Made by a program: the position numbers and the translations under genes
The notes under the pieces: generated by a model
What the model saw: only the letters and a program-made list of their open reading frames with translations
What the model was told of the DNA's origin: nothing
Database searches by the model: none
Part shown: piece by piece, positions 44,085 through 62,464 of the stretch
Layout: each line of letters opens with the position of its first letter
Numbering within the stretch: the first letter of the stretch is position 1
NCBI GenBank assembly: GCA_947259785.1
Contig: CAMYNQ010000002.1
Span: 1 to 63,912 of the forward strand
DNA from: an uncultured Chromatiaceae bacterium
GTDB lineage: Bacteria > Pseudomonadota > Gammaproteobacteria > Tenderiales > Tenderiaceae
Direction: 5' to 3'
Length of the DNA: 63,912 bases

Positions 44085-45581
44085 TCAATTCTCTACGGGG
44101 CACTCATGAGTCATCTCATAGTCGCCTTTGTCATTCAGGCTTTCAATCCGTACGGTGAACCCCCATAGGCGCGACAGGTGTTTTAGGGTTTCGCCGGTTT
44201 GCTCGTTTAATGGTCTTCTATTGTGGGTCTCGTAGCGCAGAGTCATTGATCTGTCGCCGCGCATGTCTACATTGTAGACCTGTAGGTTAGGTTCGCGGCT
44301 GCCGAGGTTGTAATGCTCTGAAAGGGCGTGGCGAATATGACGATAACCGTTGTCGTCGTGTATGGCGGATACCGTGAGTGTGTTTTCGTTGTCGTCATCC
44401 AATACCGAGAACAGCTTAAGGTTCCTGATAACGTTGGGTGACAGGTATTGCGAGATGAAGCTCTCATCCTTGAAATTACGCATGGCAAAGTCCAATACTT
44501 TTAGCCAGTCACCGCCGGCAATGTCAGGAAACCAGTGTTTATCTTCATCGGTTGGATGCTCGCAGATCCTTCTCAGATCCTGAAAGATATTAAAGCCAAG
44601 AGTGTAGGGGTTCAGGCCGCTATAAAATTGGCTGTCAAACGGTGGCTGATAAATGACATTGGTATGTGACTGGAGGAATTCCATCATAAAACCATCGTTT
44701 ACCAGGCCTTCGTCATAAAGCTTGTTGAGCAGGGTGTAATGCCAGAATGTGGCCCAGCCTTCATTCATCACCTGGGTTTGCCGTTGGGGATAAAAATATT
44801 GGGCAATCTTCCTTACGATGCGAACGATCTCACGTTGCCATGTTTCGAGGATGGGGGAGTTTTTCTCAATAAAGTAGAGCAGGTTTTCTTGTGGCTCTTC
44901 AGGCCATACCTTGGCCTTTTGCTCTGAACTGTCCTTCTCAGAACTTGGCAGTGTTCGCCATAGATCATTTACCTGTGATTGTAGGTAATCTTCACGTTCC
45001 CTTTGATTGCCTTCTTCACCGTGGAGGGAGACCTTTTGCTGGCGTTTATACCTGTCAACACCAAAGTTCATTAAGGCATGGCATGAATCGATAAGTTGCT
45101 CGACTTCCTCTGCGCCATAACGCTGTTCACATTTGGATACATAATTTTTTGCAAACAGTAGGTAGTCAACGATTGAGTCGGCGACAGTCCAAGATCTAAA
45201 TAAATAATTGTTTTTGAAAAATGAGTTGTGACCATATGAGGCATGGGCAATCACCAGTGCCTGCATGGGCATAGTATTTTCTTCCATCAGGTAGGCAATG
45301 CAGGGGTCTGAGTTAATGACTATTTCATAGGCCAGCCCCATATGACCGCGTTTATAGTTTTGTTCAACGCTTAAAAATTGTTTTCCGAATGACCAGTGAT
45401 GATAACCGACCGGCATGCCGACGGTCGAGTAGGCGTCCATCATTTGCTCTGCTGAGATAACCTCAATCTGGTTGGGATAGGTATCTAGGCCAAATTCCGC
45501 GGCGATTCTGGCTATCTCACGGTCATAGTCGAGCAGCAGGTCAAAGGTCCATTCCGAGGTTTCTGATATATATTTACTCAT
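44085..45581 (-). CDS. ycgB: SpoVR-family protein (YcgB)
   Basis: [53 protein letters not shown]. Confidence 0.92.
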
Positions 45582-46843
45582 GATGCATTCTTTTCAAAAA
45601 GTCTTTTAAAGACGGGATATATCTCAGAAATTTCGGTGAGTTTCTGCATGGCAAAGTTTGGGCATGTCGCCGATACATTTTCATACTCGAACCATAGGTT
45701 GCCGATAGGTGTGTCTTCATTGATTTCGATGTAGGCATAGTATTGTAAAAACGGCATGATTGAATTGACCAGCAGGTCTCGGCAGACGGGCGAATCATCT
45801 GTCCAGTTGTCACCATCAGAGGCCTGTGCGGCATAGATATTCCACTCTGAGGTCGGGTAGCGCTGCTGGATGATGTCGCGCATCATTTTTAGGGCGCTGG
45901 AGACAACGGTGCCGCCGGTTTCGCGGGAATAAAAGAATTCCTCTTCATTCACCTCTTTGGCAATGGTGTGATGGCGGATAAAGACTAGTTCGATATGCTC
46001 ATATGAGCGGGTTAGAAACAAGTAGAGCAGGGTGAAAAAGCGCTTGGCGACATCTTTTTCGAATTCCCCCATCGAGCCTGATACATCCATAAGGCAAAAC
46101 ATAACGGCTTGGGTGGTGGGTACGGGTTCATCGATACGGTTGTTGTAACGCAGGTCAAAGGTATCGATGTAGGGGATTTTTTTTATTTTCGCCCTTAGCT
46201 CAGCGATTTCATCTTCTAGACGGCTTATCCGGCCCAAGTCTGGAGCCGCTGATGACTTTTCTTTTAATAAAGCCTCTTCAAGCGGTTTGATCTGATTACG
46301 GTATGGGCCAGATAGCGCGATTCTTCGCGCCAGAGAGCCTTTCATTGATCTGATAACGTTGATGTTTGATGGTGTGCCGCTGGTGGTGTAACCGGCACGC
46401 ACCTTCTTGAACTGCATTTCCTTGGCGAGCTGAGTTTTTATCATATTGGGCAATTCAAGATCTTCAAAGAAAAGGTCCATGAATTCTTCCCGTGACAGGG
46501 TGAAGCTAAACTCATCCTCTCCTTCGCCAGAATCGCTGGCTTGCTTGCCACCTTTTCCTGCACCTTCTTTGGGACGGTCGATAGAATCGCCGCGGGTAAA
46601 TTCTTTGTTGCCTGGGTATACGCCGTCTCTAACGCCACCCTGGCCGGTGCCAAAGGTGGGTTCGGAGATGTCTTTTGCGGGGATGTTTACACTTTCGCCA
46701 TGTTCCATATCGGCGATGCTGCGTTTAGCGACCGCTTCTTCAACGGCTTTTTTCAGGTGCCTTTTATAACGCCGAATAAATTTCTGGCGGTTAACCGCAC
46801 TTTTATTTTTACCGTTTACACGCCGGTCTATTATTTGGCTCAC
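45578..46843 (-). CDS. yeaH: YeaH/YhbH-family vWA-like protein
   Basis: [46 protein letters not shown]. Confidence 0.93.
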
Positions 46844-46880
46844 TGTCCATCACCTTATGGGGTTGTGTGTGGCACTGGAT

Positions 46881-48803
46881 CTATGACGATTTCCGTGTTC
46901 TTAGATGCCATTCACACAGCAACCTTACCTGCTTAGGTGTGTAGCCTTTTGAGACCATTCTATCGACAAACTCTTTGTGTTTCTGTTGGTCCTCGGTTGA
47001 GGATTTAGCACTAAATGAAATGACCGGCAGAATATCTTCGGTGGTGGAGAACATCTTCTTCTCAATCACGCCGCGAATCTTTTCATAGCTGGTCCAAACC
47101 GGGTTTTTACCCTCATTGTTGGCACGTGCGCGTAAGGTGAAGTTGACAATCTCGTTTCTGAAATCCTTGGGATTACTAATGCCGGCCGGTTTTTCAATTT
47201 TTTCCAACTCGTCATTCAATGCTGCGCGGTCAAGCATTTCACCGGTGTCTGGGTCTCTGAATTCAGAATCCTGAATCCAGTAATCGGCATAGGTGACATA
47301 ACGATCAAAAACATTCTGACCATACTCGCTATATGATTCGAGGTAGGCAGTTTGAAGCTCTTTGGTAATGAACTCTGAATAATTGGTGGCCAGATAACCT
47401 TTCAGGAAGCCAATGTACTTATCTCTGATTTCAGGTGCGTACTGCTCTTGTTCTACCTGTTGTTCAAGGATGTAGAGCAAGTGAACAGGATTAGCCGCTA
47501 CTTCAGTGTGGTCATAGTTAAATACCTTTGACAAAATCTTGAATGCAAACCGGGTAGACAGCCCCGTCATGCCTTCGTCGGGACCGGCAGCATCCTTGTA
47601 TTCCTGTATCGACTTGGCTTTCGGGTCAATATCTTTTAGGTTTTCGCCGTCATAGATCCGCATTTTTGAGAATATGCTGGAATTCTCGGGTTCTACCAGA
47701 CGTGTCAGAGCAGCAAATTGCGCCATCATCTCCAGGGTGTCAGGTGCACATGGCGCATCTTTCAGCGAACTTTCCCTAAGCAGTTTTTCATAGATCTTTA
47801 CTTCTTCGGAAACACGTAGGCAGTAAGGCACCTTGACGATATAGATTCGATCAAGGAAGGCCTCATTGTTTTTGTTGTTTTTAAAAGAAGTCCATTCAGA
47901 TTCATTGGAATGCGCAAGAATAACGCCATTAAAAGGGATGGCAGGGAAGCCTTCCGTACCCTTATAGTTACATTCCTGAGTGGCGGTGAGCAGGGGGTGC
48001 AATACCTTGATAGGGGCTTTGAACATCTCCACGAACTCAAGCATGCCCTGGTTGGCCTGGCACAGGCCGCCTGAAAAACTATAAGCGTCAGGGTCATCCT
48101 GCGAATACTGCTCCAGCATTCTGATATCAACCTTGCCCACCAATGCTGAAATATCCTGGTTGTTTTCATCACCGGGTTCTGTTTTGGCAATACCAACCTG
48201 TTGCAATACCGATGGGGTTAGTTTTACGACTCTGAATTTAGATAGGTCACCATTGTGTTCATGCAGACGCTTCACAGCCCATGGTGACATGATGCCTGGC
48301 AAATAACGGCGTTCTATGCCGTAGTCTTCTTCGAGAATTTTGCCATCTTCATCTGGTGAAAACAGTCCCAGTGGCGACTCATTCACCGGCGAGCCCTTAA
48401 TGGCATAGAAGGGGATTTTTTCCATCAATGATTTTAGTTTTTCTGCCAACGACGATTTGCCCCCACCAACGGGGCCGAGCAGATAGAGGATCTGTTTCTT
48501 CTCTTCCAAGCCTTGAGCGGCATGTTTGTAGAAAGAAACAATTTGCTCAATGGTTTCTTCCATGCCGTAAAACTCTTTAAAGGCTGGATAGATTTTAATG
48601 ACCTTGTTAGAAAAGATTCGGCTGAGCCTGGGATCATCACGTGTATCGACAAGCTCAGGTTCGCCAATAGCCATTAGCATGCGTTCCGCTGCTGTTGCAT
48701 ATACAGAGGGGTCTGACTTACAGAGATCCAGATACTCCTGGAGACTCATCTCATCCTCTTTGGCTTCCTCGTATCGTTCTTGAAACTGATTGAAGATACT
48801 CAT
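46881..48803 (-). CDS. yeaG: PrkA-family AAA+ serine kinase YeaG
   Basis: LLGPVGGGKSS, PGDENNQDIS, EFVEMFKAPIK, AHSNESEW. Confidence 0.96.
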   Translation of the reverse strand: MSIFNQFQERYEEAKEDEMSLQEYLDLCKSDPSVYATAAERMLMAIGEPELVDTRDDPRLSRIFSNKVIKIYPAFKEFYGMEETIEQIVSFYKHAAQGLEEKKQILYLLGPVGGGKSSLAEKLKSLMEKIPFYAIKGSPVNESPLGLFSPDEDGKILEEDYGIERRYLPGIMSPWAVKRLHEHNGDLSKFRVVKLTPSVLQQVGIAKTEPGDENNQDISALVGKVDIRMLEQYSQDDPDAYSFSGGLCQANQGMLEFVEMFKAPIKVLHPLLTATQECNYKGTEGFPAIPFNGVILAHSNESEWTSFKNNKNNEAFLDRIYIVKVPYCLRVSEEVKIYEKLLRESSLKDAPCAPDTLEMMAQFAALTRLVEPENSSIFSKMRIYDGENLKDIDPKAKSIQEYKDAAGPDEGMTGLSTRFAFKILSKVFNYDHTEVAANPVHLLYILEQQVEQEQYAPEIRDKYIGFLKGYLATNYSEFITKELQTAYLESYSEYGQNVFDRYVTYADYWIQDSEFRDPDTGEMLDRAALNDELEKIEKPAGISNPKDFRNEIVNFTLRARANNEGKNPVWTSYEKIRGVIEKKMFSTTEDILPVISFSAKSSTEDQQKHKEFVDRMVSKGYTPKQVRLLCEWHLRTRKSS

Positions 48804-49212
48804 TGCCGCTCACCTCGCTAAGTTGTTCTGTCCCTAAATCTATAGTCTGTAATTGCACCTTATGACAGTTCTCAACTAATTTGGCTTTCCATGTTATCTG
48901 TGGATAGGGAAAGCATGTTGTATCCAAACCAATGCACGGTTGAGAGCAATCGCAGGATTTTCAAAAATCTATAATATTTATCGGCACACTTCATATAAGT
49001 CGTTAATGCCAATATATCTACTAAATCAGAGTGTCGTCTCGCTAATAGAGTTCAATCTAATTTTTGTGGTGTTTTTGTTGCGACCGCTGTTGGGCTTTCT
49101 GTTTTGAATAGAGTTACGCAGATGTGGGTATATCTGAATTGTTTATAAACGTAGTTTTAGTCTGAAAAAATATATATCAGAAGTGTCTTTTGTGTGCATA
49201 ATTTTAAATACC

Positions 49213-49330
49213 TGCGTTTGGTTGGTGCATACATACATTGTGCTGCGATGATAGTTACATGATTTTAAATTAAAACATTTTTAAATCATCTACTTATAAA
49301 AGATATCAGTGTGCTGGCACAGCTGTTGCA
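49213..49330 (+). promoter_or_regulatory. sigma54 promoter with upstream NtrC-like enhancer
   Basis: TGGCACAGCTGTTGCA at 49315-49330 (consensus TGGCAC-N5-TTGCA); TGCGTT-N5-GGTGCA at 49213-49229. Confidence 0.85.
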
Positions 49331-49371
49331 ATTCATTAAATCAAACACTTTGGTGAGATGGTTAAACAACG

Positions 49372-51360
49372 ATGCCAATTACGAAACAACAATATCAGTA
49401 CCCGGCTTCTGAGTTGAATAATGTCTGTGTAGTGGTTGTTGGCACTGGGCCGGTTGGTATGCGCACCGTACAGGAGTTGTTTCGACTAAAACCAGATCAA
49501 AAAATTGTGATTTACGGAGATGAACCATGGGAGCCCTATAACCGCGTTCGTTTGACGCAGATGCTGGCAGGTCATTCTACCTGGGCTGATATCTTTCAAT
49601 CCTTAAAACTGCCTGAGCAGGCCAGCATAGAAAAGCGTTACAACTGTTCCGTGGTTGGCATTGATCCTGAGGCTAAAAAGGTGACTGATGCCGCAGGTGG
49701 CTCGCAAAATTATTCAAAATTAGTACTGGCTTTAGGTTCCAGGCCTCACATACCAAATATAACCGGTGTTGGTCTCGATGGTGTTTTTACGCTCCGTAAT
49801 ATGTCTGATGTTCAGGGGCTGTTGGCGCGGCGCGTCCGCAGCCGGAAGACGTTGGTCATTGGTGGTGGTCTGTTGGGCATAGAAGCCGCCAAGGCTTTGC
49901 AGCGCAGTCATGTTGAGGTCTCGATTATTGAGCACGGCAGTCGTTTAATGGAGCGGCAGCTAGATGATGCTGCCTCCGAATTCATTCGCGAATATGTACT
50001 GGAATTGGGTATTAAGGTCTATCTAGCTGATGGCGTACAACAGATATTGGGTGAGCGTCTGGTTCAGGGGGTGCGTTTGCGCAGTGGCCGTGAACTCGAT
50101 TTCGATACAATAGTCATTGCCAGCGGCATTATTCCCAACACCAAACTGGCACGTGAGTCTGGTATTGCCGTTGGCCGGGGCATTCGTGTTGATGACACAC
50201 TGCAAACCTCGGTACCTGATATCTATGCTGTTGGTGAGTGCACGGAACATCGAGGTCAAATATATGGACTGGTGGCCCCAGGACTTGAACAGGCCTCTGT
50301 TGCCGCCCACCACATTTTGGCTAAAAAGGCTGTTTACAAAGGCAGCATTGCGGCAGCCCACCTTAAAGTCGTTGGCAAAAGTGTGTTCAGCATTGGTTGT
50401 GTCAGTGATGTAGATATTGGCAATCTTGATGAGCAGATTTCATATCGTTCCACAGCGAATGATAGCTATAGAAAATTAGTCATTCGCCATAACAAGCTCG
50501 TGGGAGCTGTCGCGATTGGTGAATGGAATGAAGTTGGTCGTATTCAGGAGGCTGTTGTTTCAAACCGCCATGTTTGGCCTTGGCACAAATTACGCTTTAA
50601 ACGAACTGGGGAACTATGGCCAGCACAGGTCAGTGATGATATTCGTCGGTGGCCGGTTTCTGCCGCCGTTTGCAACTGCACTGGCGTGACTCGTGGTGCG
50701 TTGAGTGCGGCAGTGGCTGGTGGTTGTCAAACAGTGGCACAACTGGCTGAGTGTACGGGGGCTTCGACAGTGTGTGGCACATGTAAGCCTAAGTTGGCAC
50801 AACTGCTTGGCCAGCAGGTAGAGCCAGTTGAGCAGAAGGCTATGAGGCCACTAATGATCATGTCAATTGCGGCACTGCTTGTGGCTGGTTTGACTGCGCT
50901 AGTTGAGCCAATAACAAATGCAAAAACAGTGCAGGGTGGCTGGCATGTGAGTCAATTGTGGCATGACAGCTGGGCCAAGCAGGTAACCGGTTTTGGTCTG
51001 TTGGGTGTTACGGCTATTGCCTTGCTGATCTCGTTGAGAAAACGGTTATCTAAATTTGCGCTATTTGATTTTTCATATTGGCGTGTCCTGCACGCAGGGC
51101 TGGGGCTGGTTACGCTGTTGCTGTTATTGCTGCACACAGGCTTGCGTTTTGGTGACAACCTCAATTTTTATCTGATGTTCTGTTTTGTCGGTATTGTAAT
51201 TGTCGGGACGGTCGCTGGGGTTGTTACTGCGTATGAGGGGGGCAAGACCAGTCTGGTGATTGGCCGCTGGCGTCGTTGCTCTACTTGGGCACATATTTTT
51301 CTATTTTGGCCTTTGCCGGTGTTGCTTGGCTTTCACATTCTTAAGTCGTATTACTACTAG
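49372..51360 (+). CDS. NirB-like FAD/NAD(P)H oxidoreductase plus BFD [2Fe-2S], fused to a 5-TM putative di-haem-b domain
   Basis: GTGPVG, PYNRV.L, VIGGGLLGIEAA, IYAVGEC, LKVVG; CNC...CGTC; TM3 and TM5 each carry H-x13-H (codons 51091/51133 and 51292/51334); no sirohaem/4Fe-4S domain. Confidence 0.85.
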   Translation: MPITKQQYQYPASELNNVCVVVVGTGPVGMRTVQELFRLKPDQKIVIYGDEPWEPYNRVRLTQMLAGHSTWADIFQSLKLPEQASIEKRYNCSVVGIDPEAKKVTDAAGGSQNYSKLVLALGSRPHIPNITGVGLDGVFTLRNMSDVQGLLARRVRSRKTLVIGGGLLGIEAAKALQRSHVEVSIIEHGSRLMERQLDDAASEFIREYVLELGIKVYLADGVQQILGERLVQGVRLRSGRELDFDTIVIASGIIPNTKLARESGIAVGRGIRVDDTLQTSVPDIYAVGECTEHRGQIYGLVAPGLEQASVAAHHILAKKAVYKGSIAAAHLKVVGKSVFSIGCVSDVDIGNLDEQISYRSTANDSYRKLVIRHNKLVGAVAIGEWNEVGRIQEAVVSNRHVWPWHKLRFKRTGELWPAQVSDDIRRWPVSAAVCNCTGVTRGALSAAVAGGCQTVAQLAECTGASTVCGTCKPKLAQLLGQQVEPVEQKAMRPLMIMSIAALLVAGLTALVEPITNAKTVQGGWHVSQLWHDSWAKQVTGFGLLGVTAIALLISLRKRLSKFALFDFSYWRVLHAGLGLVTLLLLLLHTGLRFGDNLNFYLMFCFVGIVIVGTVAGVVTAYEGGKTSLVIGRWRRCSTWAHIFLFWPLPVLLGFHILKSYYY

Positions 51361-51368
51361 GTTGCACC

Positions 51369-52715
51369 ATGAAGCATGCAAATATGAAATGGTGGATCTT
51401 GTGGTTGTTCAGTAGTCTTAGCTTGGCTGGTTATTTTGCTTATGCACTGGTTATGGGCGAAGACAAAACGGTTTACCTACCCGGTGATAGTAGTCATGGG
51501 CATTATCAAATCGAAATGGCATGTAATAGTTGCCACGGCGAAGCCTTTGATGACCAGGAGGTCATGCAAACGGCCTGTGTCAATTGTCATGCTGATGAAC
51601 TTAAGAGGGTGGATGACTCACACCCAAAACGTAAATTTACCGACCCGCGCAACGCAGATCGCGTTGCTATTTTGGATGCACGCTATTGCATCACTTGTCA
51701 CAGTGAGCATGACCAGGAAATCACTGCTGACATGGGCGTGACCCTGGCAAGTGATTTCTGTGCTTTATGCCACGAAAATATTGCTACTGATCGTGTTAGC
51801 CATAAGCTTTTACCATTTGATGGTTGTGCTAGTGCCGGCTGCCACAATTATCACGATAACAAAGCGCTTTACGAAGACTTCCTTGTTAAACATGCCAACG
51901 AACCAGTTGTCATGGCTGAGCCAAAAGTCGCTGAACGTAATTATTCTGACTGGGTGGTAAAGGTAGAGGGCAGGAAACCAACATCGCTGACACGGAGTGA
52001 TGTCGATGCCCCTTCAGAGATAGAGCTTGATCCGTTGGAAATGAGTCGTTGGCAGGGATCTGCTCATGCTCGCGGCGGTATTAACTGTTCAGGTTGTCAT
52101 GTTGATGACAATAAGTGGCTAAGAAAACCTGGATTAGCCATTTGCCAAACCTGTCATAACTCGGAAACAGAGGGTTTTAAACAGGGAAAACATGGCATGC
52201 GCATTGCCGTTGGTCTCGATCCGCTGAGGCCAAAAGATGCGCGTCTGGCCATGAATAAAGATGTCCACAACAGTCAGTTAGCTTGTAATAGCTGTCATGA
52301 GGGCCATGCCTATTATATTAAAAAAGCCGCAGCTGAAGCTTGTCTTGCTTGTCATGATGATGGGCATAGCAAGGCATATCTAAGATCTAAACACAATATT
52401 CTTTGGCAGCAGGAGATCGAGGGTTTAATTGATCCAGGTCAGGGTGTCTCCTGTGCTACCTGCCACATGCCTCGCCAACGGGTCCGTAGTCAAGGTCATG
52501 AGCGGGTAATGGTTAGTCATAATCAAAACCTCAATCTGCGTCCCAATGAAAAGATGCTGCGTGGTGTTTGTATGAATTGTCATGGCTATGAATTTTCGGT
52601 CAATGCATTGGCCGATGTTGAATTAGTAAAAACAAATTTCAATGGTAAACCGAAAGTGATGATTGAAAGCGTCAAGATGGCGCTGAAACGCGAACGGACT
52701 GAGAAATCTGAGTAG
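51369..52715 (+). CDS. Membrane-anchored multihaem cytochrome c (10 CxxCH plus one CX4CH)
   Basis: CNSCH, CVNCH, CITCH, CALCH, CASAGCH, CSGCH, CQTCH, CNSCH, CLACH, CATCH, CMNCH; N-terminal hydrophobic helix. Confidence 0.92.
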   Translation: MKHANMKWWILWLFSSLSLAGYFAYALVMGEDKTVYLPGDSSHGHYQIEMACNSCHGEAFDDQEVMQTACVNCHADELKRVDDSHPKRKFTDPRNADRVAILDARYCITCHSEHDQEITADMGVTLASDFCALCHENIATDRVSHKLLPFDGCASAGCHNYHDNKALYEDFLVKHANEPVVMAEPKVAERNYSDWVVKVEGRKPTSLTRSDVDAPSEIELDPLEMSRWQGSAHARGGINCSGCHVDDNKWLRKPGLAICQTCHNSETEGFKQGKHGMRIAVGLDPLRPKDARLAMNKDVHNSQLACNSCHEGHAYYIKKAAAEACLACHDDGHSKAYLRSKHNILWQQEIEGLIDPGQGVSCATCHMPRQRVRSQGHERVMVSHNQNLNLRPNEKMLRGVCMNCHGYEFSVNALADVELVKTNFNGKPKVMIESVKMALKRERTEKSE

Positions 52716-52758
52716 TAAATCCAAATCGACGTTTAATTTAATCCACCATAGGAGAAGT

Positions 52759-53346
52759 ATGATGAAATATGTAAATAAGGCGATAGCCGTCGTGACTCTG
52801 GCAAGTTCAACGCTTTTACTGAGCGCTTGTGGTGACGAGCCGTCAACCGCAGCGCCTGTTGGTGTGTCGCCGCAAAAGATGTCTGATGCGCTGCATGCGG
52901 TAATGGAAGCCGATCGCGCCATCTATACCAAAAAGGTCATTGCCAGATTAGTGAAGCAAGAAAAACTGATTAAGGCCAGCGAACACTGGGAAGATGAAAA
53001 GGCTTTGCCACTGCCGGCGCAAATGTTCCGCATGGGCTCTGAACGTGTGGCTGAAAATACTTCTGACTTCAGTTACTCGTTGATATCAGCCTGGCCAATC
53101 AATAAGCAGAATGAACCCAAGACCGACGCTGAGAAAGAGGGCTTGAAGTATATCGAGGATAATCCGGGTAAAAATTTTTATAAGACTGAAAGTTTAGGTG
53201 GGCAGGCCTATTTCACTGCGATTTACCCTGATGTGGCGGTCGCTGCGCCCTGTGCCGATTGCCATAACGATCACAAAGATTCACCTAAGACTGATTTCAA
53301 AATTGGTGACACCATGGGCGGTGTAGTGATTCGCATACCTTTATAA
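52759..53346 (+). CDS. DUF3365 (Tll0287-like) monohaem c lipoprotein
   Basis: Lipobox LSAC; LPLPAQM, Y.LIS.WPIN..N.P, CADCH, F..GD..GGVVI. Confidence 0.82.
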   Translation: MMKYVNKAIAVVTLASSTLLLSACGDEPSTAAPVGVSPQKMSDALHAVMEADRAIYTKKVIARLVKQEKLIKASEHWEDEKALPLPAQMFRMGSERVAENTSDFSYSLISAWPINKQNEPKTDAEKEGLKYIEDNPGKNFYKTESLGGQAYFTAIYPDVAVAAPCADCHNDHKDSPKTDFKIGDTMGGVVIRIPL

Positions 53347-53368
53347 ATCTAAACTGGGCGTTATAAAC

Positions 53369-53403
53369 ATCCCTAGGCTGAGTAAATCTGTCTAGGGATT
53401 TTT
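53369..53403 (+). terminator. Terminator closing the three-gene redox operon
   Basis: ATCCCTAGGC...GTCTAGGGAT followed by Ts. Confidence 0.75.
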
Positions 53404-53425
53404 GTGTGCACAGATGATGGATATA

Positions 53426-53541
53426 CGCGTTAATTTGGTGCGACAGCAGAATTTAATTATTTGTAAATAGATGTTGTTGTATATATCTTGTTGTTTAGTA
53501 AAAGAAAATTAAAAAAATTTTACAGTGGAATGGTTTTTGCG
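53426..53541 (+). promoter_or_regulatory. sigma54 promoter and NtrC-like site for nasT
   Basis: TGGAATGGTTTTTGCG at 53526-53541; CGCGTT-N5-GGTGCG at 53426-53442. Confidence 0.65.
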
Positions 53542-53593
53542 ATGGGTTTATATAGGTAACTAGATAAAGTAAAAGTGGAATAGCAGGTTTACT

Positions 53594-54172
53594 ATGAATA
53601 TAAGACTGATGCTGGTCTATCAATCCAGACAACGACAGCAGCTTTTGCAACAGGCTGCAGACGAAAGTGGCTATCAGGTGGCAGTATGTGTTGCGCTGGA
53701 TGCTGATCTTCAACAAACGCTGCAGGCAGCTCAGGCAGATGTCATCATCTTTGATATTGATCAACCTGATCAACAATTGTTGGCCCGCACGCATAACCTG
53801 AATCAGCTGCATGCCATACCGATTATCATGTTTGCTGAACGGGGCGACCAAAAAACAATCATAGAGGCGGTTAATGCCGGGGTCACTTCTTATGTGGTTG
53901 ATGGCCTGCAGCCTAAGCGTCTGCGGCCGATTGTAGAAGCAGCCATGGCCCGTTTTAAGGCCTTTCAATCGTTACGCCAAGAGTTGCAGGAGACCAAGAG
54001 CAAACTGGAAGACCGTAAACATATCGACAAGGCCAAGGGCATCCTGATCCAGCAAAAAAACATCAGTGAGGATCAGGCTTATCAGGCGCTACGTAAACTG
54101 GCCATGGATAGGAACATCAAGCTTGGTGACGCGGCCTGTAATGTCATTGCCATGGCTGATATTTTTAAATGA
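53594..54172 (+). CDS. nasT: ANTAR-domain pseudo-receiver antiterminator (NasT-like)
   Basis: REC-like fold lacking the acidic pocket and Lys (LVYQS; SYVVDG), coiled coil, ANTAR RK.IDKAKG.L...E..AY..LR..AM. Confidence 0.85.
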   Translation: MNIRLMLVYQSRQRQQLLQQAADESGYQVAVCVALDADLQQTLQAAQADVIIFDIDQPDQQLLARTHNLNQLHAIPIIMFAERGDQKTIIEAVNAGVTSYVVDGLQPKRLRPIVEAAMARFKAFQSLRQELQETKSKLEDRKHIDKAKGILIQQKNISEDQAYQALRKLAMDRNIKLGDAACNVIAMADIFK

Positions 54173-54205: not shown

Positions 54206-54343
54206 TGCACGGCAATAGTGCAGTAAGTTTTTAATGTTGCACTTTGATGGCGCTCTCATTTCTTCGTAAACAAAAAAATTTCTATCGAGGCGATTAATAT
54301 TAACTAAAAACAACTAGATAGAAAAAGTGGTACGGGCTTTGCT
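54206..54343 (+). promoter_or_regulatory. sigma54 promoter with tandem NtrC-like sites for the porin gene
   Basis: TGCACG-N5-AGTGCA (54206) and TGCACT-N5-GGCGCT (54238), 32 bp apart; TGGTACGGGCTTTGCT at 54328-54343. Confidence 0.8.
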
Positions 54344-54488: not shown

Positions 54489-55718
54489 ATGAAAACAGTA
54501 ATGGGCTTTAAGAAAAAAATCACTCCTGCACTATTAGTGGCATCAGCTTTGGCGGGCAGCAATGTTTCGACAGCAAGTGCCGCAACACTGGCTGAAGCCA
54601 TATCGGACGGTAAGGCAGGGCTGGATTTGCGCTACCGTTTTGAAACGGTTGATCAAGACGGTGCTAGCAATGATGCAACAGCTTCAACGCTGAAAACTCG
54701 TCTTAACTATGCCACTGGTGATTACAACGATTTCAGTGCCTTTATCGAATTTGATGACGTCATGGCCCTGGGTGATGTTGAATATAATGATGCAACCGGG
54801 TCTGCGACGGCCCAAACCAGCTATCCAGTAGTGGCTGACCCAGAAGGTACCGAAGTAAATCAGGCCAAAATCAGTTACAAGGGCGTTGATGACACAACCA
54901 TGACCTTGGGACGTCAGCGGGTAATTTTTGATAATGCCCGTTTTATTGGCAACGTTGGCTGGCGTCAAAATGAGCAGACCTATGATGCCTTCACGATAGC
55001 CAATACTTCACTGGCAGATACCAGCATCGTTTATGGTTATGTCACTAACGTCAATCGCATCTTTGGTGAAGCCTCGACAAAGGGTGATATTGATACAGAA
55101 ACTCACCTTGTGAATATCGCCTACAGCGGTCTTGAAGCCGGCAAGCTGACTGGTTATGGTTATTTTTTAGATCTACTTGATTCACCCGCGGCATCGAATT
55201 CAACGCTTGGCCTTCGTTTTGCCGGTGGTACAAAAGTAAGCGAGGCCGCTAAGGTGCTCTACACCCTAGAGTTCGCTAACCAGTCTGATTACTCGGATGG
55301 TGCCTCAACGATTGATGCCGATTACAGTTTGATCGAGGTAGGTGGAAAGGCCGGTGGTGTAACCGCCAAGCTGGGTGTTGAAACTCTGAGTGGCGACGGA
55401 ACCTATGCTTTTAGTACACCACTGGCCACGGCGCATGCCTTTAATGGCTGGGCTGATAAATTTTTAGGCACACCGGCCAATGGTCTGGTTGATGCCTATG
55501 TCAGTGTTGGCGGCAAGGTTTCGGGTGTGAAGCTGGTGGCTGTGTATCATGATTTTACTTCCGATACTGGCAGCACCGACTACGGCACAGAGTTTGATTT
55601 GTTGGCGGCCAAGAAGATTGGCAACTATACCGTGTTAGCTAAATACGCCAGTTACTCAGCTGATAGCTTTGCCACTGACACAGACAAGCTATGGTTGATG
55701 GGTCAGGCTAAATTCTAA
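54489..55718 (+). CDS. Alginate-export-family outer-membrane porin (nitrate-cluster associated)
   Basis: Signal peptide, LRYRFE.V, GRQR...DN.RFIGNVGWRQNEQT.D, F.TPLAT.HAFNGWAD.F, C-terminal Phe. Confidence 0.82.
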   Translation: MKTVMGFKKKITPALLVASALAGSNVSTASAATLAEAISDGKAGLDLRYRFETVDQDGASNDATASTLKTRLNYATGDYNDFSAFIEFDDVMALGDVEYNDATGSATAQTSYPVVADPEGTEVNQAKISYKGVDDTTMTLGRQRVIFDNARFIGNVGWRQNEQTYDAFTIANTSLADTSIVYGYVTNVNRIFGEASTKGDIDTETHLVNIAYSGLEAGKLTGYGYFLDLLDSPAASNSTLGLRFAGGTKVSEAAKVLYTLEFANQSDYSDGASTIDADYSLIEVGGKAGGVTAKLGVETLSGDGTYAFSTPLATAHAFNGWADKFLGTPANGLVDAYVSVGGKVSGVKLVAVYHDFTSDTGSTDYGTEFDLLAAKKIGNYTVLAKYASYSADSFATDTDKLWLMGQAKF

Positions 55719-55828: not shown

Positions 55829-55947
55829 TGCTCAAATATAGTGCTAAGCATTTCCCTTAAAGCAGGGCCCTAGCTGGTTCATAATTATAAAGTTCTTTTT
55901 AAATAACAAGTTAGTGATGTTTTGTTGTTATTGGCATAGTGGTTGCA
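55829..55947 (+). promoter_or_regulatory. sigma54 promoter and NtrC-like site for nrtABC
   Basis: TGGCATAGTGGTTGCA at 55932-55947; TGCTCA-N5-AGTGCT at 55829-55845. Confidence 0.8.
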
Positions 55948-55965: not shown

Positions 55966-56127
55966 GGCCCAACGTAGGGTTAGCTAAACAAAACAACGGT
56001 TAGGCTCCAACGGCGGACACTAAACCGGAAAATAAAAAACAGTCGCGGCCAGAGTAGGGCCTGAACAGGACAACGACGTCCATCGGCAACACGCTATCAG
56101 TGTGTCTGCGGGTGGGCGTTTTTTTTT
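55966..56127 (+). ncRNA. ANTAR-target leader RNA with 3-4 hexaloop hairpins plus terminator
   Basis: CCC-AACGTA-GGG (55968), TCC-AACGGC-GGA (56006), CC-AGAGTA-GG (56049, weak), GGAC-AACGAC-GTCC (56068), then GTGGGCG-T9. Confidence 0.85.
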
Positions 56128-56155
56128 GATTTGTAAACGTAAACGGAGTGGAACA

Positions 56156-57574
56156 ATGAAGTTGGAAACACAAACACAGATGAACCTGACTTGCCGGGGT
56201 TTTATGAAAAAGGCATCGGCTGCCGTGCTGTCAGCAATGATGGTGATGGGCGGTTCTGTTATTTTGCCAGGCAGTGCAGCCTATGCGATTGATGATCTGG
56301 AAAAGGAGGATCTGAAAATTGGTTTTATCAAACTGACAGACATGGCGCCCTTGGCGATTGCCTATGAAAAGGGTTTCTTCGAAGATGAAGGTCTGTACGT
56401 CACTCTGGAAGCGCAGGCCAACTGGAAGGTGTTGCTTGACCGTGTTATCGATGGCGAGCTTGACGGTGCCCACATGCTGGCCGGTCAACCGTTGGGTGCA
56501 ACCATTGGTTTTGGTACCCAGGATCACATCATCACTGCCTTCTCCATGGACCTGAATGGTAATGCCATCACTGTTTCCAACAAGGTCTGGGGCGAGATGA
56601 AAAAACACATTCCGCATGAAGGCGGCAAACCCGTTCACCCCATCAAGGCTGATGCACTGAAACCTGTGATTGAGCAATACAAAGACGCAGGCAAGCCTTT
56701 CAAGATGGGCATGGTGTTCCCAGTCTCTACCCATAACTATGAGCTTCGTTACTGGTTGGCTGCGGGTGGTATCCACCCAGGTTATTACGCACCACACAAG
56801 GGCGATACCTCAGGCACCATCGATGCAGAAGCGTTGTTGTCTGTAACGCCACCACCACAAATGCCATCGACTATGGAGGCCGGCACGATTGATGGATACT
56901 GCGTCGGTGAACCCTGGAACCAGCAGGCTGTATTTAAGGGCATAGGTGTGCCGGTGGTGACCGATTATGAGATCTGGAAAGACAACCCTGAAAAAGTATT
57001 TGGTGTCAGCAAGAAGTGGGCAGATAAAAACCCCAACACGCATATTGCTGTCGTCAAGGCCATGATCCGTGCTGCCAAATGGTTGGATGACAATAACAAC
57101 GCCAATCGTCCTGAGGCGGTTAAAATTCTGTCACAGCCAAACTATGTGGGTGCTGACTACGACGTAATCGCCAACTCCATGACCGGTACTTTTGAGTATG
57201 AGAAGGGTGACAAGCGTGCGGTGCCAGACTTCAATGTCTTCTTTCGTTATAACGCCACCTATCCCTATTACTCAGATGCAATCTGGTACCTGACGCAGAT
57301 GCGTCGTTGGGGTCAGGTGGCGGATGAGAAGCCGGATAGCTGGTTCATGGATATCGCCAAGAAAGTTTATCGTCCAGACATTTATACAATCGCTGCGAAA
57401 GAACTGATTGCCGAAGGCAAGATTGCTGCAAGCGAGTTTCCGGACTTTGCCAAGGAAGATGGTTTTCGTGCGCCACAAACGCACTTCATCGATGGCATTA
57501 CCTATGACGGTAAAAAACCGAATGACTATCTGAAGAAATTCAATATTGGCCTGAAGGGTAGTGAAAAGATCTAA
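56156..57574 (+). CDS. nrtA: CmpA/NrtA-family nitrate/nitrite ABC substrate-binding protein
   Basis: [54 protein letters not shown]. Confidence 0.9.
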
Positions 57575-57645
57575 AGCAAGTTCTCCCCCTCCCGTTAGGA
57601 GGGGGAATTAAAGCCTAACCCCAACACTTGAAGCAGGGTGAAGTA

Positions 57646-58665
57646 ATGAAAACCAAAATTATCAACACGCTCGAAATGACTGGTCTCTCATGGCTGGTGC
57701 CCGTGGTGCGTTTGAGCAGCGGAGAAAATCCACGTGACCAACTCAACGAAATGATGACAGTGATTGGTCTGCCGCTGATCGCCATCGCCGCCTTTTTGTT
57801 TATCTGGGCCGGTGCCGCTGCCCAGGTTAAAACCAGCCTGGGTGAACTGCCGGGTCCGAGTCAGGTATGGCAACAGGCCCAAGGCTTGTATGAAGAACAC
57901 CTGGCCGAGCGTGAAAAAGAGGCGGCCTTTTATGAACGCCAGGAACAACGCAATGCCAAGAAACTGGCCAAGAACCCTGATGCTGAAATCAAGGTGCGTG
58001 ATTATACCGGTCGCGACACGTTTATCGACCAAATATGGACCAGCTTGGGCACTGTCTTTACAGGATTCTTTTTTGGCGCACTGATTGCCATTCCCATCGG
58101 TGTCGCCTGTGGTCTGAGCCAAAAACTCTATGGCGCCATCAGTCCACTGGTGCAGATATTCAAACCCGTATCACCACTGGCCTGGCTCCCCATCGTGACC
58201 ATGATTGTTAGTGCTGTTTACATCACTGACGATCCTATGTTCGAAAAGGCCTTTATTACCTCGGCCATCACGGTGACGCTGTGTTCGCTGTGGCCAACGC
58301 TGATTAACACGGCTGTCGCTGTCGCCTCAATCGACAAAGACTTGATCAATGTTGGCCGTGTGATTCGTCTGCATTGGTTAACTCAGGTATTCAAAATTGC
58401 CATCCCCGCTGCACTGCCAATGATCTTTACTGGCCTGCGTATCTCACTGGGTATCGGCTGGATGGTATTGATTGCCGCTGAGATGCTGGCGCAAAACCCA
58501 GGCCTGGGCAAGTTCGTCTGGGATGAATTCCAGAATGGCAGTTCCAATTCCCTGGGCCGCATCATGGTCGCGGTGATTAGCATAGGCCTGATTGGTTTCT
58601 TGTTGGACTGGATGATGATGACACTGCAAAAAGTGTTGTCACATGACAAGACTGCAGGTGCTTAA
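57646..58665 (+). CDS. nrtB: Nitrate ABC transporter permease
   Basis: PVSPLAWLP, WPTLINT, FTGLRISLGIGWMVLIAAEML, GLGKFVWDE. Confidence 0.9.
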   Translation: MKTKIINTLEMTGLSWLVPVVRLSSGENPRDQLNEMMTVIGLPLIAIAAFLFIWAGAAAQVKTSLGELPGPSQVWQQAQGLYEEHLAEREKEAAFYERQEQRNAKKLAKNPDAEIKVRDYTGRDTFIDQIWTSLGTVFTGFFFGALIAIPIGVACGLSQKLYGAISPLVQIFKPVSPLAWLPIVTMIVSAVYITDDPMFEKAFITSAITVTLCSLWPTLINTAVAVASIDKDLINVGRVIRLHWLTQVFKIAIPAALPMIFTGLRISLGIGWMVLIAAEMLAQNPGLGKFVWDEFQNGSSNSLGRIMVAVISIGLIGFLLDWMMMTLQKVLSHDKTAGA

Positions 58666-58756
58666 TTGCCTAAGGGTAAAAGTGTCAATTAAAAAAATAT
58701 GTAGTGCGGATTTCAGCCGCCCTACAAGATGATCAAAGAGATTAGAGGGCAACACA

Positions 58757-59620
58757 ATGTCAGTAGTACAAATGTTGAAAACAGAAGCAATAGTTGATGA
58801 GGCTATGGACAAGCCAAGAGAACACTACCAGCGAGCGTTCCTTGATCTCAGCGGAATCTCAATTGAGTTCCCCACCAAAAAGGGGCCATTCAAAGCGCTG
58901 GACAACGTCAACCTGAAGATTGCCAAGGGTGAGTTTGTTTCCATTATTGGTCACTCCGGTTGCGGTAAATCAACGGTTTTGAACATCGTTGCCGGTCTTT
59001 ACAAGGCGACAACCGGTGGTGTGATTCTTAACGGTAAAGAGGTGGACGAACCCGGGCCTGATCGGGCAGTAGTGTTTCAGAATCATTCACTGTTGCCATG
59101 GCTGACCTGTTATCAGAATGTTGAGATTGCGGTGAAGGCCATCTTTAAGGGCAAAAAGAGCAAACTTGAGATGAAGCAGTGGATTGAACACAATCTGCAC
59201 CTTGTGCACATGGATCATGCCATGCACAAATATCCGGCTGAAATTTCTGGCGGCATGAAACAGCGTATCGGTATTGCCCGGGCATTGGCGATGGAGCCAA
59301 CGGTACTGCTGATGGATGAGCCTTTTGGTGCCCTGGACGCCCTGACCCGTGCCCATCTGCAAGATTCGGTGATGGAGATTCAGGCTGATCTTAATAGCAC
59401 CGTCATCATGATTACCCATGATGTCGATGAGTCTGTGTTGTTGTCAGACAAAATTGTGATGATGACAAATGGCCCGGCGGCAACGGTTGGCGAGGTATTG
59501 AACATCGAGTTGGAACGGCCGCGTAATCGGTTGGAACTGGCAGATGACCCGCAATACAACAAATATCGCGCCGAGGTGTTGAAGTTTCTTTATGAGCGTC
59601 AACGTCGACCACAGGAGTAG
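58757..59620 (+). CDS. Nitrate ABC transporter ATP-binding protein (NrtC/NrtD type)
   Basis: GHSGCGKST, PGPDRAVVFQNHSLLPW, ISGGMKQR, LMDEPFGALD, ITHDVDE, MMTNGP.A. Confidence 0.92.
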   Translation: MSVVQMLKTEAIVDEAMDKPREHYQRAFLDLSGISIEFPTKKGPFKALDNVNLKIAKGEFVSIIGHSGCGKSTVLNIVAGLYKATTGGVILNGKEVDEPGPDRAVVFQNHSLLPWLTCYQNVEIAVKAIFKGKKSKLEMKQWIEHNLHLVHMDHAMHKYPAEISGGMKQRIGIARALAMEPTVLLMDEPFGALDALTRAHLQDSVMEIQADLNSTVIMITHDVDESVLLSDKIVMMTNGPAATVGEVLNIELERPRNRLELADDPQYNKYRAEVLKFLYERQRRPQE

Positions 59621-59647: not shown

Positions 59648-60905
59648 CACTAGTGTCCCGTTAAGAAATAAATGAAGAGGCCTGATTCAATCTTGAATTA
59701 GCACAATAGATTTATCACAACTCATTGACACCAAAAGAAGAGTCAGGCCATAGCACATAATAATGTGTTGATTTCTAACTACTAAGACATGAATTCGAAA
59801 GCCTGGCAAAACAACATCATTCAGGGCGAGCATTCTGTAAAGCCCCGTGCTGGTCACAGTTTGTGACGATGATAGTAGCTCAGCTTTGAGGCCGGAACAG
59901 TCTTCGTGATACGGTTGAGGGCCTGTCATCCCAGGCCCATCGCCTCTATCATTTGGGTTGCAGTAAGTTGTCTCGATCAAACCTATCGCGAATCAATGTC
60001 CCCCCCTATGAGCTGTCCCAAGCGCTCTTCGGTAAACTGTTGGCACGTTGCCAATCAATGGCGCCCGGGATGGGTTTCGTTTCAAAAACAAATTGATCTC
60101 CCTGGATGCATCGACGATTGACCTATATTTAGAGGTGGTTCCCTGGGCACGTTTTCGCAGCACCAAGGGGGCTGTGAAACTGTATATCGGTCTGAACCAT
60201 GACGGCTATCTGCCGGAGTTCATTAAAATCACGGATGGTAAAACCAGTGATATTGCCGCAGTGCCTAGCTTTGCCTTTCCCAAAGGAAGCAGCGTCGTTT
60301 GTGACCGGGGATACAATGACTGTTCATAATATAACAAATTGAAAACAAAGGGTTTTTTTATATTTAACACGTCAGAAAAGCACTGCTAAATACCGGGTTG
60401 TGGAGCGTTGAGAAGTTTGCATGAAGCAAAGGCTAAGCAGTGACCAGACAATAAGATTTACCGGTGTTCAGACGCAGAAGAAATATCTTGCCCCAATCCG
60501 TCGAATTGGCTATCGATGCCCTGAGGTAGACAGACGCTATATCTTTTTAACCAATAACTTCTCCCTATCGGCTCACACTATCACGAATATCTATAAGTTA
60601 CGCTGGCAGGTGGAGCTTTTTTCAAATAGCTAAAACAAAACCTGAAAATTAAACGTTTTGTCGGCACCACGAGAAATGCCGTGATGACACAGGTTTGGAT
60701 TGCCATGTGCGCCTATCGGCTGATCGCCTTCATCAAGTTGCAATCAAAGGTTGGAAAAAGCATGCAGCAGACACTCCGGCTATACCTGCTTAATCTATTG
60801 GTGAAAATCGTGAGCTATTCTCATTCTTGCAAGGTGCCCCGCCTATGATCAAAGTGAGGACACGAGACAAGTGGAATTTTGGTCAAAGTTAACGGGATAC
60901 CAGTG
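59648..60905 (+). mobile_element. Degenerate IS4-family element (transposase in fragments)
   Basis: Terminal IRs CACTAGTGTCCCGTTAA / TTAACGGGATACCAGTG (15/17); fragments LDASTIDL...WARFR.TKGAVKL, DRGY, FLTN...IYK.RWQVELF; many stops. Confidence 0.85.
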
Positions 60906-62336: not shown

Positions 62337-62464
62337 GCGCCGAAGCTTTATATTTTGTTCTGCCAAGGCTGGTCAGGGGTTCCCACTCGGCGAAACCATA
62401 ACCGTTAATGAAACAGCCTTGGCTAAATAAACCAAATCAGATTCATCAAGTCAGGAGAATTAAT

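Follow-up and report, generated by a model that had tools for sequence, protein, structure and literature searches.

Three adjacent genes in the genome of an uncultured Chromatiaceae bacterium are predicted to encode one membrane-spanning redox machine, which would carry electrons from NADH to the periplasm, accompany nitrogen (N) assimilation and probably act on nitric oxide (NO) or a related N-oxide. As a whole we regard this reading as evenly poised between right and wrong. Its parts differ in strength: the electron conduit itself is likely, its link to N assimilation is favoured with less assurance, and NO or a reactive N-oxide as its target is a tentative proposal. The genes lie on contig CAMYNQ010000002.1 (assembly GCA_947259785.1), within a stretch of 63,912 nt that was analysed as a whole and is called the window here. 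Positions 49372–53346 of its forward strand are filled by three open reading frames (ORFs), referred to as genes 1, 2 and 3, with intergenic gaps of 8 and 43 bp. A first-pass annotation had described these genes as a self-contained operon, and we reach the same view from the short gaps, an exact sigma-54 promoter at 49315–49330 and a terminator hairpin at 53369–53403. The parts of the predicted machine are as follows (lengths in amino acids, aa).

49372–50667, forward strand: gene 1 residues 1–432, cytoplasmic NirB-type FAD/NAD(H) module (Pyr_redox_2, Pyr_redox, Rubredoxin_C)
50668–50811, forward strand: gene 1 residues 433–480, BFD-like [2Fe-2S] domain (Fer2_BFD, 6.8e-10)
50812–51360, forward strand: gene 1 residues 481–662, five-helix membrane domain, proposed site of two haems b
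51369–52715, forward strand: gene 2, predicted inner-membrane-anchored 11-haem cytochrome c, 448 aa
52759–53346, forward strand: gene 3, one-haem-c lipoprotein of the Tll0287-like/DUF3365 (sCache_haem) type, 195 aa

Gene 1 Combines a NirB-type Flavoprotein with a Five-helix Membrane Domain

The N-terminal part of gene 1 (49372–51360, 662 aa) resembles the nitrite reductase NirB. Pfam assigns Pyr_redox_2 to residues 20–312 (5.6e-57), Rubredoxin_C to residues 330–397 and a single Fer2_BFD domain to residues 433–480, and gives no match beyond residue 480. The NirB model TIGR02374 is the best curated family for residues 20–483; the match covers only model positions 1–469 of 794 and scores 385 bits against a cut-off of 578.35. 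Gene 1 thus shares with NirB the FAD/NAD(H) module of two dinucleotide folds, the Rubredoxin_C-type domain and the first BFD [2Fe-2S] domain, but differs in having one BFD domain instead of two, a membrane domain at its C-terminus and no sirohaem domains. The sirohaem/[4Fe-4S] domains NIR_SIR and NIR_SIR_ferr are absent from gene 1 by Pfam and present in the NirB that the same genome encodes on contig C67. The missing domains, the score below the cut-off and the C-terminal membrane domain rule gene 1 out as a NirB-type nitrite reductase. These matches agree with the first-pass annotation, which had seen NirB's FAD/NADH part with one BFD domain and no sirohaem domain. Its expectation that the gene would be mislabelled as nirB was also borne out: among the 120 best matches to gene 1, 23 carry names, and 18 of these are called nitrite reductase (NADH) large subunit, the remaining five being named 'FAD-dependent oxidoreductase' or similar. 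This routine annotation of gene 1 as NirB distorts metagenomic inventories of the nitrogen cycle.

Conservation in gene 1 was determined from 69 full-length representatives with no more than about 50% mutual identity. The four cysteines of the BFD domain (C434, C436, C468 and C471) are invariant in all 69. So are four histidines of the membrane domain, which form two pairs, H574/H588 in transmembrane helix (TM) 3 and H641/H655 in TM5, each with the spacing H-x13-H. The other histidines that the window's membrane domain contains are less well kept, H525 in 17% and H531 in 61% of the representatives. The first-pass annotation had proposed five transmembrane helices with H-x13-H pairs in TM3 and TM5 and had named loss of the four histidines as grounds for abandoning the idea; the AlphaFold2 model (54-row alignment) has five long helices with a pLDDT of 92.5, and the pairs fall where proposed. 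With the flavoprotein on the cytoplasmic side, TM3 and TM5 share an inside-to-outside direction, which places H574 and H641 in the inner leaflet and H588 and H655 in the outer leaflet; Lys and Arg are enriched in the loops that this topology assigns to the cytoplasm. Because TM3 and TM5 are parallel, each His pair would span the membrane. A pair of parallel helices, each with H-x13-H, is the classical holder of two haems b, as in cytochrome b of the bc1 complex and in NOX. The membrane domain has this arrangement, with two parallel helices and paired histidines about 13 residues apart, and we infer that it binds two haems b.

The membrane domain appears to be a family of its own. Its 182 residues gave no Pfam match at E<=10 beyond two rows at E 2.1 and 6.2, and a HMMER search against 1.84 billion representatives found 580 proteins at E<=0.001. 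In nearly all of the 150 matches listed, the domain is C-terminal in proteins of about 660 aa, or the match is a fragment of such a protein. The 580 matches, nearly all C-terminal among those listed, and the lack of a Pfam family argue for a separate family. The first-pass annotation had likened the domain to ferric reductases and NOX; the likeness stands as far as the paired histidines on TM3 and TM5 are concerned, but not as detectable homology. The ferric reductase family PF01794 did not match at E<=10, and hhalign against seven MsrQ-type proteins of related genomes, run without a positive control, gave a probability of 0.3%. Foldseek against the PDB returned no match at E<=0.001 (the best was a talin rod at E 0.27), and NOX, STEAP and MsrQ were absent from the rows listed for its 207 matches at E<=10; helical bundles are hard for this program, so that the domain may still be a distant relative. 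In the ESM Atlas only the domain's own family was recovered (0.84), everything else scoring below 0.8. The membrane domain is therefore best described as only an analogue of the NOX/ferric-reductase domains and not a detectable member of that group.

A few longer relatives bear on the role of the domain. In these rare proteins the same membrane domain stands behind a BFD domain and an FAD_binding_6/NAD_binding_1 reductase, accompanied by EF-hands or domains that bind cyclic nucleoside monophosphates (cNMP). The membrane domain is thus found behind two types of flavin module, so that its constant partner is a flavin reductase plus BFD, which is what a role in electron entry predicts. Two examples are P0352 and P0387 (951 and 1013 aa), where EF-hands or three cNMP-binding domains precede the FNR-type reductase, BFD and membrane domain. 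The combination of EF-hands with an FNR-type reductase resembles the layout of the calcium-regulated NOX5.

Gene 2 Has the Features of an Eleven-haem Wire

Gene 2 encodes a protein with a hydrophobic helix at its N-terminus, ten CxxCH motifs, one CxxxxCH motif and no CxxCK. In 82 sequences all 11 haem motifs and exactly 11 further histidines are invariant, five of each in the N-terminal half and six of each in the C-terminal half. One invariant spare His per haem and the lack of CxxCK fit a cytochrome in which every haem is ligated by two histidines (bis-His), a predicted wire rather than a catalytic protein. In the N-terminal helix, W12 and Y22 do not vary among 17 sequences and are retained in at least 90% of the 82, which argues that the helix is a retained anchor and not a cleaved signal peptide. 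Pfam recognizes gene 2 as Cytochrom_c3_2 (65 bits), and the DmsE family scores 49 bits against a cut-off of 192; gene 2 is far under every family cut-off and has no relative among the solved structures searched.

We considered whether gene 2 or gene 3 could be a periplasmic assimilatory reductase that converts nitrite or hydroxylamine to ammonium in the manner of NrfA or hydroxylamine oxidoreductase (HAO), using electrons from NADH. The profile of gene 2 matches NrfA (7.4e-9) and octahaem nitrite reductases (~1e-6) locally, the best Foldseek match of the gene 2 model is hydroxylamine oxidoreductase 6t5e (E 7e-3, TM-score 0.29), and the operon has a nitrate-assimilation neighbourhood. However, the NrfA and octahaem matches are limited to single haem-motif stretches, and the marks of a catalytic haem in the NrfA, octahaem and HAO families, namely CxxCK or a haem without a spare His within the family fold, were not found in gene 2. 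Such a reductase would also leave the globin partners described below unexplained and would coexist in most carriers with a complete cytoplasmic NirB. We consider it decidedly unlikely.

Gene 3 Is a Stand-alone sCache_haem Lipoprotein

Gene 3 matches PF11845 at 75 bits, above the cut-off of 24.1. It has a lipobox (LSAC) and one CxxCH, and its cysteines are limited to the lipobox Cys24 and the CxxCH pair, leaving none that could act as a distal haem ligand as in Tll0287. A lipobox is found in 55 of 67 relatives; C165, C168 and H169 are invariant in 48 sequences, and LPAQMFR, WP, QN and CxxCHNxHKD are invariant motifs. Neither phmmer nor a profile of the 48 sequences matched any PDB sequence. 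DUF3365 domains have been described as Cache domains with a covalent haem c (bioRxiv 10.64898/2026.02.01.703092). In the available text of that preprint, the stand-alone class is called redox-related with a role that is unknown, its genes are said not to show the sort of genetic association known from other stand-alone sensors, and the distal Cys ligand is said not to be universal in the family. Gene 3 belongs to this class by its PF11845 match and the defining CxxCH, but differs from the known stand-alone proteins in lacking the distal Cys of Tll0287 and the P. putida protein and in being a lipoprotein in a fixed operon.

Half of the sCache_haem family is reported to be fused to signalling domains, and one signalling member to bind NO tightly and act as an NO sensor (10.64898/2026.02.01.703092, available text). 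Gene 3 might by the same token sense NO or the redox state, with the other two genes serving to tune it. Sensing, however, would not call for a flavoprotein, two b haems and eleven c haems, and no signalling output domain is present in the operon or conserved nearby; relatives of gene 3 from different phyla are 52–79% identical to the window's protein, as in a fixed subunit. We give the sensor reading hardly any weight.

In 48 of the 55 lipobox sequences G, S or N follows the lipidated Cys; Asp does so in none. Lipoproteins of E. coli that lack Asp at this position are sorted to the outer membrane. By this rule gene 3 could be an outer-membrane adaptor, and the operon could supply electrons to an unlinked periplasmic or outer-membrane enzyme or to an extracellular acceptor, in the style of MsrQ-MsrP. 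Eleven haems could span much of the periplasm, and modules for electron export exist, as MsrQ and bacterial NOX illustrate in the available text of PMC5676040 and PMC12525009. Still, the sorting rule varies between species, the porin linked to the operon is of the small-solute type, and the 80 related loci described below have no conserved neighbour that could be the acceptor, be it a porin-cytochrome, a molybdoenzyme or another candidate. A distant partner of this sort is highly unlikely in our estimate.

The window encodes a second stand-alone Tll0287-like/DUF3365 haem-c protein at 62408–63061 on the forward strand (217 aa; PF11845, 1.6e-27). Its N-terminal part has an additional Cys that gene 3 lacks, and BLASTP aligns the two proteins over the C-terminal 65 residues only.

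A Model Places the First Haem of Gene 2 at the Membrane Domain

The first-pass annotation had suggested structure modelling of the three proteins as a check. We used ESMFold2 to model the membrane domain of gene 1 with gene 2, gene 3 (without signal peptide) and two haems, gene 2 being the scored partner. The ipSAE was 0.69 in all three runs and at best 0.22 in three controls; the runs had at least 88% of contacts in common, and the partner pLDDT was at least 79. Among solved complexes 58 of 80 reach the ipSAE mark, as do 2 of 110 mismatched pairs; these counts are rough guides here because of our own alignments and the riding ligand. Replacing the membrane domain lowered the score to 0.22, which indicates that the pass depends on the way gene 1 and gene 2 meet; the model gives no separate support for contact between gene 2 and gene 3. 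On the gene 1 side the modelled contacts involve the periplasmic loops (domain residues 36–41 and 114–118) and the outer half of TM5 (166–182), and on the gene 2 side the anchor helix (12–27), the segment 34–40 and C52/H56 of the first haem motif. The model thus places, with the confidence given by these scores, the anchor and first haem of gene 2 on the periplasmic face of the membrane domain, and the contact as modelled is the geometry that an electron conduit needs.

The Three Genes Are Linked across Phyla and Keep Company with Globins

A scan of one genome per species yielded at least 598 stretches, at least 582 of them encoding a relative of gene 2; the best 80 of the 582 were analysed as related loci. 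The carriers of gene 2, at least 582 species genomes, belong to several phyla. The 80 best loci come from Alcanivorax, Cellvibrionaceae, Porticoccus, Hahella, Marinobacter, Pseudomonas benzenivorans and Catenovulum among the Gammaproteobacteria, Thiobacillus, Methylophilaceae and Gallionellaceae among the Betaproteobacteria, and further Alphaproteobacteria, Nitrospirota, Poribacteria, Verrucomicrobiota and a Bryobacterales record. Cultivable carriers include Alcanivorax, Cupriavidus necator, Hahella and P. benzenivorans.

Gene order is all but fixed in these loci. Where enough sequence was available, the membrane domain lies directly 5' of gene 2 (76/76), the flavoprotein part 5' of that (69/71) and gene 3 directly 3' of gene 2 (75/75), with median gaps of 4 and 28 bp. 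The two exceptions for the flavoprotein are the Bryobacterales locus L048, where gene 1 is split into adjacent ORFs of 451 and 191 aa, and L038, which has a shortened gene 1 ORF. Linkage in homologues was one of the points on which the first-pass annotation had staked its proposal of a single system, and it holds.

The neighbourhood survey that the same annotation had recommended gave homologues of nrtA, nrtB and nrtC in 32, 30 and 31 of the 80 loci, of nasT in 22 and of the porin in 16. A median of 45 bp separates the end of the porin gene from the start of gene 1 in nine of these loci. Clustering of all ORFs in the 80 loci revealed additional conserved genes. A class-I monohaem cytochrome c lipoprotein is encoded in 42 loci, a single-domain globin in 44 and a truncated globin in 16, the latter followed by a Fer2-FAD-NAD reductase, also in 16. 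Pfam confirmed the Globin, Bac_globin and Fer2-FAD-NAD reductase assignments. The monohaem cytochrome, globin and reductase genes are on the same strand as the operon with gaps of operon size (11–50 bp). A globin gene lies within 3.5 kb on the 3' side, on the same strand, in 60 of the 80 loci and in 39 of the 47 with full flanks; three more of the 47 have a truncated globin and reductase just 5'. No oxidase or peroxidase gene is linked to the operon in the 80 loci, and no porin-cytochrome, molybdoenzyme or signalling output domain is a conserved neighbour. The first-pass annotation had left the acceptor as 'an N compound' and had missed the globin and monohaem cytochrome neighbours; the continuation of operons into these genes narrows the acceptor towards NO/O2 chemistry.

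One locus has an unusual arrangement. In L010 (Thiohalomonadales, 2690–12042) the complete operon occurs twice in tandem; a truncated globin follows the first copy, and nrtABC the second.

The monohaem cytochrome raises another explanation, that the operon is an NADH:cytochrome c bypass which feeds the periplasmic cytochrome c pool and through it terminal oxidases or peroxidases, skipping quinone and bc1 as a low-yield spill when carbon is in excess and N is short. The carrier-like look of all the haems of gene 2 suits this idea, as do the cytochrome gene on the 3' side in over half of the loci (42/80), the carrier-like potential of the stand-alone sCache_haem protein that has been studied (10.64898/2026.02.01.703092, available text), the fact that many carriers degrade oil or polysaccharide and as such are typically short of N, and the sigma-54 promoter of the operon. 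But the oxidase or peroxidase that it calls for is not linked in the 80 loci, the operon's specific co-occurrence with NirB, nrtABC and NO-type globins is left unexplained, and eleven haems with a dedicated lipoprotein exceed what a simple bypass would need. We therefore regard the bypass as unlikely.

Regulatory Signals and Neighbouring Genes in the Window

The first-pass annotation had placed the operon upstream of nasT, a porin gene and nrtABC, and nasT, the porin gene and nrtABC-like genes lie downstream of gene 3. The signals and genes around the operon are the following.

49213–49229, forward strand: weak NtrC-like inverted repeat TGCGTTTGGTTGGTGCA, about 100 bp 5' of the sigma-54 promoter; its position alone fits
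49315–49330, forward strand: sigma-54 (−24/−12) promoter TGGCACAGCTGTTGCA, zero mismatches to TGGCAC-N5-TTGCW
53369–53403, forward strand: intrinsic-terminator-like hairpin with U-run, identified by folding energy
53594–54172, forward strand: nasT, receiver plus ANTAR antiterminator (ANTAR 1.3e-19, Response_reg)
54206–54222 and 54238–54254, forward strand: NtrC-like repeats about 100 bp 5' of the porin's sigma-54-like motif
54328–54343, forward strand: sigma-54-like motif 5' of the porin gene, 1 mismatch
54489–55718, forward strand: outer-membrane porin (Alginate_exp / Opr-type), identified by family matches
55932–55947, forward strand: sigma-54-like motif 5' of nrtA, 1 mismatch
56102–59620, forward strand: nrtA, nrtB and nrtC-like ORFs (nitrate/nitrite ABC transporter; names as in the first-pass annotation)

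The promoter sequence TGGCAC-N5-TTGCA, with GG at −24 and GC at −12, lies 41 bp 5' of the gene 1 ATG and is the sole exact match within the window. In the related loci a relaxed form of the sigma-54 motif precedes gene 1 within 350 bp in 23 of 68, where chance predicts 0.0125 for each such stretch. The terminator-like hairpin has a folding energy of −23 kcal/mol (z = −4.1), and none of 200 shuffles was equally stable. The NtrC-like site claimed by the first-pass annotation fared worse: the best candidate 5' of gene 1 has three mismatches to TGCACC-N5-GGTGCA, and such matches number 17 in the window against 35.6 expected. The repeats before the porin gene are closer to the consensus. Inspection of 49190–49230 by eye showed no NsrR-type repeat.

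An operon of prkA, a DUF444 (yeaH-like) gene and spoVR on the reverse strand (44085–48803) diverges from gene 1 and has in common with it an intergenic region of 568 bp. A sigma-54 motif directed to that strand was not found at up to one mismatch. The prkA/DUF444/spoVR trio is linked to nitrogen starvation in enterobacteria.

Two further regions of the window were noted. Directly 3' of nrtC, at 60048–60633 on the forward strand, are short broken ORFs with a DDE transposase fragment (PF01609), and the region looks like an insertion-sequence remnant that ends the nitrate-uptake cluster. On the reverse strand, 28386–38663 is an ORF of 3425 aa with a C-terminal OmpA-like beta-barrel, a PKD-like domain and internal DNA repeats (an identical 17-mer occurs at 35440, 36106 and 37105), and it is probably a repetitive surface adhesin.

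Most Sampled Carriers of the Operon Also Encode NirB

The source genome is a draft of 296 contigs, 95% complete and 5% contaminated. Its contig C67 encodes a complete NirB of 815 aa, with two BFD domains and NIR_SIR, followed by nirD. This complete NirB indicates that gene 1 is no stand-in for NirB. The genome also has nasA followed by nnrS, which encodes an NO-stress membrane protein. The region as a whole (C67, 2–11420) is a canonical assimilation cluster of nirB-nirD, a molybdoenzyme together with an Fe-S/DmsC-type fusion protein, a nasA-type reductase that ends in a BFD domain, and nnrS. NtrC was found over its cut-off in the source genome; no NorR passed its cut-off in this assembly, which is 95% complete.

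A second copy of the operon is present on contig C76 (6880–10902), with 40–64% identity to the first. It might belong to another organism, given the 5% contamination. Elsewhere in the genome, contig C4 has three truncated-globin genes in tandem (52484–53677), and contig C164 a truncated globin followed by a Fer2-FAD-NAD reductase at the contig end (3–961). Globin-type partners of these kinds sit inside the operon in other genomes.

To place the source genome in context, an even sample of its class was scored. Of the 300 genomes, 20 (about 1 in 15) carry gene 2. NirB over the curated cut-off was found in 18 of the 20 carriers and in 101 of the 280 non-carriers (Fisher p ~2e-6, computed with 281), a p value that overstates the case because relatives are not independent. 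Without G051, G153 and G307, which are flagged as unpublished, NirB occurs in 99 of 277 non-carriers and the outcome is unchanged. The co-occurrence with NirB that the first-pass annotation had asked about is thus present. The same figures, together with the nirBD-nasA genes of the window's own genome, speak against gene 2 or gene 3 as an assimilatory nitrite reductase.

Proposed Function of the Operon

The path that we propose would begin with the transfer of electrons from NADH to the FAD of gene 1 and from there to the [2Fe-2S] cluster of the BFD domain. From the cluster they would pass to two haems b held between TM3 and TM5, one ligated by H574 and H641 on the cytoplasmic side and the other by H588 and H655 on the periplasmic side, and so cross the membrane. 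Haem 1 of gene 2, whose anchor helix is predicted to pack on TM5, would receive them next, and they would move along the eleven bis-His haems to the haem c of the gene 3 lipoprotein; in most other genomes the monohaem cytochrome c may also be in the path. We assume that the conduit is independent of the quinone pool. The analysis shows the domains, motifs, conservation, synteny and co-occurrence, from which cofactor binding, the direction of electron flow, the regulator and the substrate are predicted.

We suggest that this module is an accessory of nitrate/nitrite assimilation, expressed from its sigma-54 promoter, most likely through NtrC under N limitation. Its likely job would be to keep a periplasmic haem site reduced so that it can consume NO or a related reactive N-oxide, for which nitrate/nitrite assimilation would be the source. 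Inside the cell, the matching task would fall to the cytoplasmic globins that relatives encode in their operons; these globins are of kinds known as NO dioxygenases. The case for a periplasmic arm of NO/N-oxide handling is drawn from the anatomy of the three proteins, the N-assimilation and globin neighbours, a Bradyrhizobium system that removes NO formed during nitrate assimilation, and the NO binding reported for an sCache_haem protein.

A number of observations weigh against this proposal. Since NO diffuses freely through membranes, the need for a dedicated system in the periplasm is not obvious. Only about 40% of the related loci adjoin nrtABC, and the copy on contig C76 is without an N-related neighbour, being flanked by genes for a HEAT-repeat protein, a pyridoxal-phosphate enzyme and an NqrA fragment. 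The operon in the window itself has no adjoining globin or monohaem cytochrome gene; these are elsewhere in the draft genome. As to regulation, the NtrC-like site 5' of gene 1 is weak and not above chance across the window, and the source genome has about a dozen sigma-54 activators. As to the haem site, gene 3 has no Cys ligand and no match among solved structures, so that its haem pocket is unreadable, and the only stand-alone sCache_haem protein studied is reported, in the available text, to bind NO weakly and to have a carrier-like potential of +123 mV (10.64898/2026.02.01.703092). The analogous MsrQ is reported to hold ubiquinone (PMC12525009, available text), which bears on the assumed independence from the quinone pool.

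An extension of the proposed NO handling, which is speculative and on balance improbable, is that the haem c of the sCache lipoprotein, kept ferrous, turns NO plus O2 or superoxide into nitrate in the periplasm. NrtABC would import this nitrate, the globins would act likewise inside the cell, and the membrane domain would stand for a new transmembrane di-haem family that reached the NOX solution independently. If such salvage were true, NO would be a nitrogen source, or a recovered nitrogen leak, beyond being a poison.

Comparison with Known Systems

In the full-text literature no paper was found to describe a NirB-like membrane flavoprotein together with an 11-haem cytochrome and a DUF3365 protein, although a mention in a supplementary table or a subscription journal is possible. 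The words operon, neighbor, nitrate and multiheme are absent from the available text of the sCache_haem preprint (10.64898/2026.02.01.703092). A paper on Idiomarina (PMC9230427) was set aside as a prior description, as it lists only an unrelated DUF3365 protein. The first-pass annotation knew of no characterised system with this layout, and our searches of full-text literature and solved structures likewise turned up no characterised orthologous complex.

The individual parts have several counterparts. Gene 2 resembles NrfB, MtrA/DmsE and the undecahaem cytochrome UetJ in having many bis-His haems c, as predicted here, in one chain. The partners of UetJ are tri- and tetrahaem cytochromes, NHL proteins and the porin UetC (PMC10734462, available text), and genes for such partners were not found beside the gene 2 operon in the 80 loci. 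The 'undecahaem' Uet complex was rejected as the same system; it is a different porin-cytochrome system.

A counterpart in genetic context is Bjgb-Flp-NasC of Bradyrhizobium, in which a globin and a flavoprotein encoded in a nitrate-assimilation operon remove the NO that assimilation produces (PMC4724949, available text). Like the loci studied here, that cluster combines an NAD(P)H flavoprotein and a single-domain globin with nrtABC and is under NasS-NasT control. It differs in being wholly cytoplasmic, with no membrane domain, multihaem cytochrome or sCache_haem protein, and the likeness between Flp and gene 1 is by description only. The company of nitrate-uptake genes and NO-type globins makes two matters testable, namely how aerobic nitrate assimilators handle NO and what purpose the stand-alone DUF3365 haem proteins serve.

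In mechanism the operon can be compared with the NOX/ferric-reductase systems. Export of electrons from NAD(P)H through membrane haems is described for bacterial NOX (PMC5676040, PMC11031084) and MsrQ (PMC12525009), as given in the available text of these papers. SpNOX and MsrQ with Fre take electrons from cytoplasmic NAD(P)H through a flavin to haems b on His pairs of TM3 and TM5 and on to an acceptor outside, and the spacing H-x13-H is the same as in gene 1. Gene 1 differs in having five helices and not six, a flavoprotein of the NirB type and not the FNR type, and an additional [2Fe-2S] step; the acceptor would be a multihaem cytochrome c in place of O2 or MsrP. Bacteria are thought to power periplasmic redox chemistry almost wholly through the quinone pool, and the few known direct routes from NAD(P)H to the outside (NOX, MsrQ + Fre) use one superfamily. 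The kind of system is therefore known, while its parts and acceptor are different and not detectably related: the same job is apparently done here by a NirB-type flavoprotein, an Fe-S step, a five-helix di-haem domain and an eleven-haem wire.

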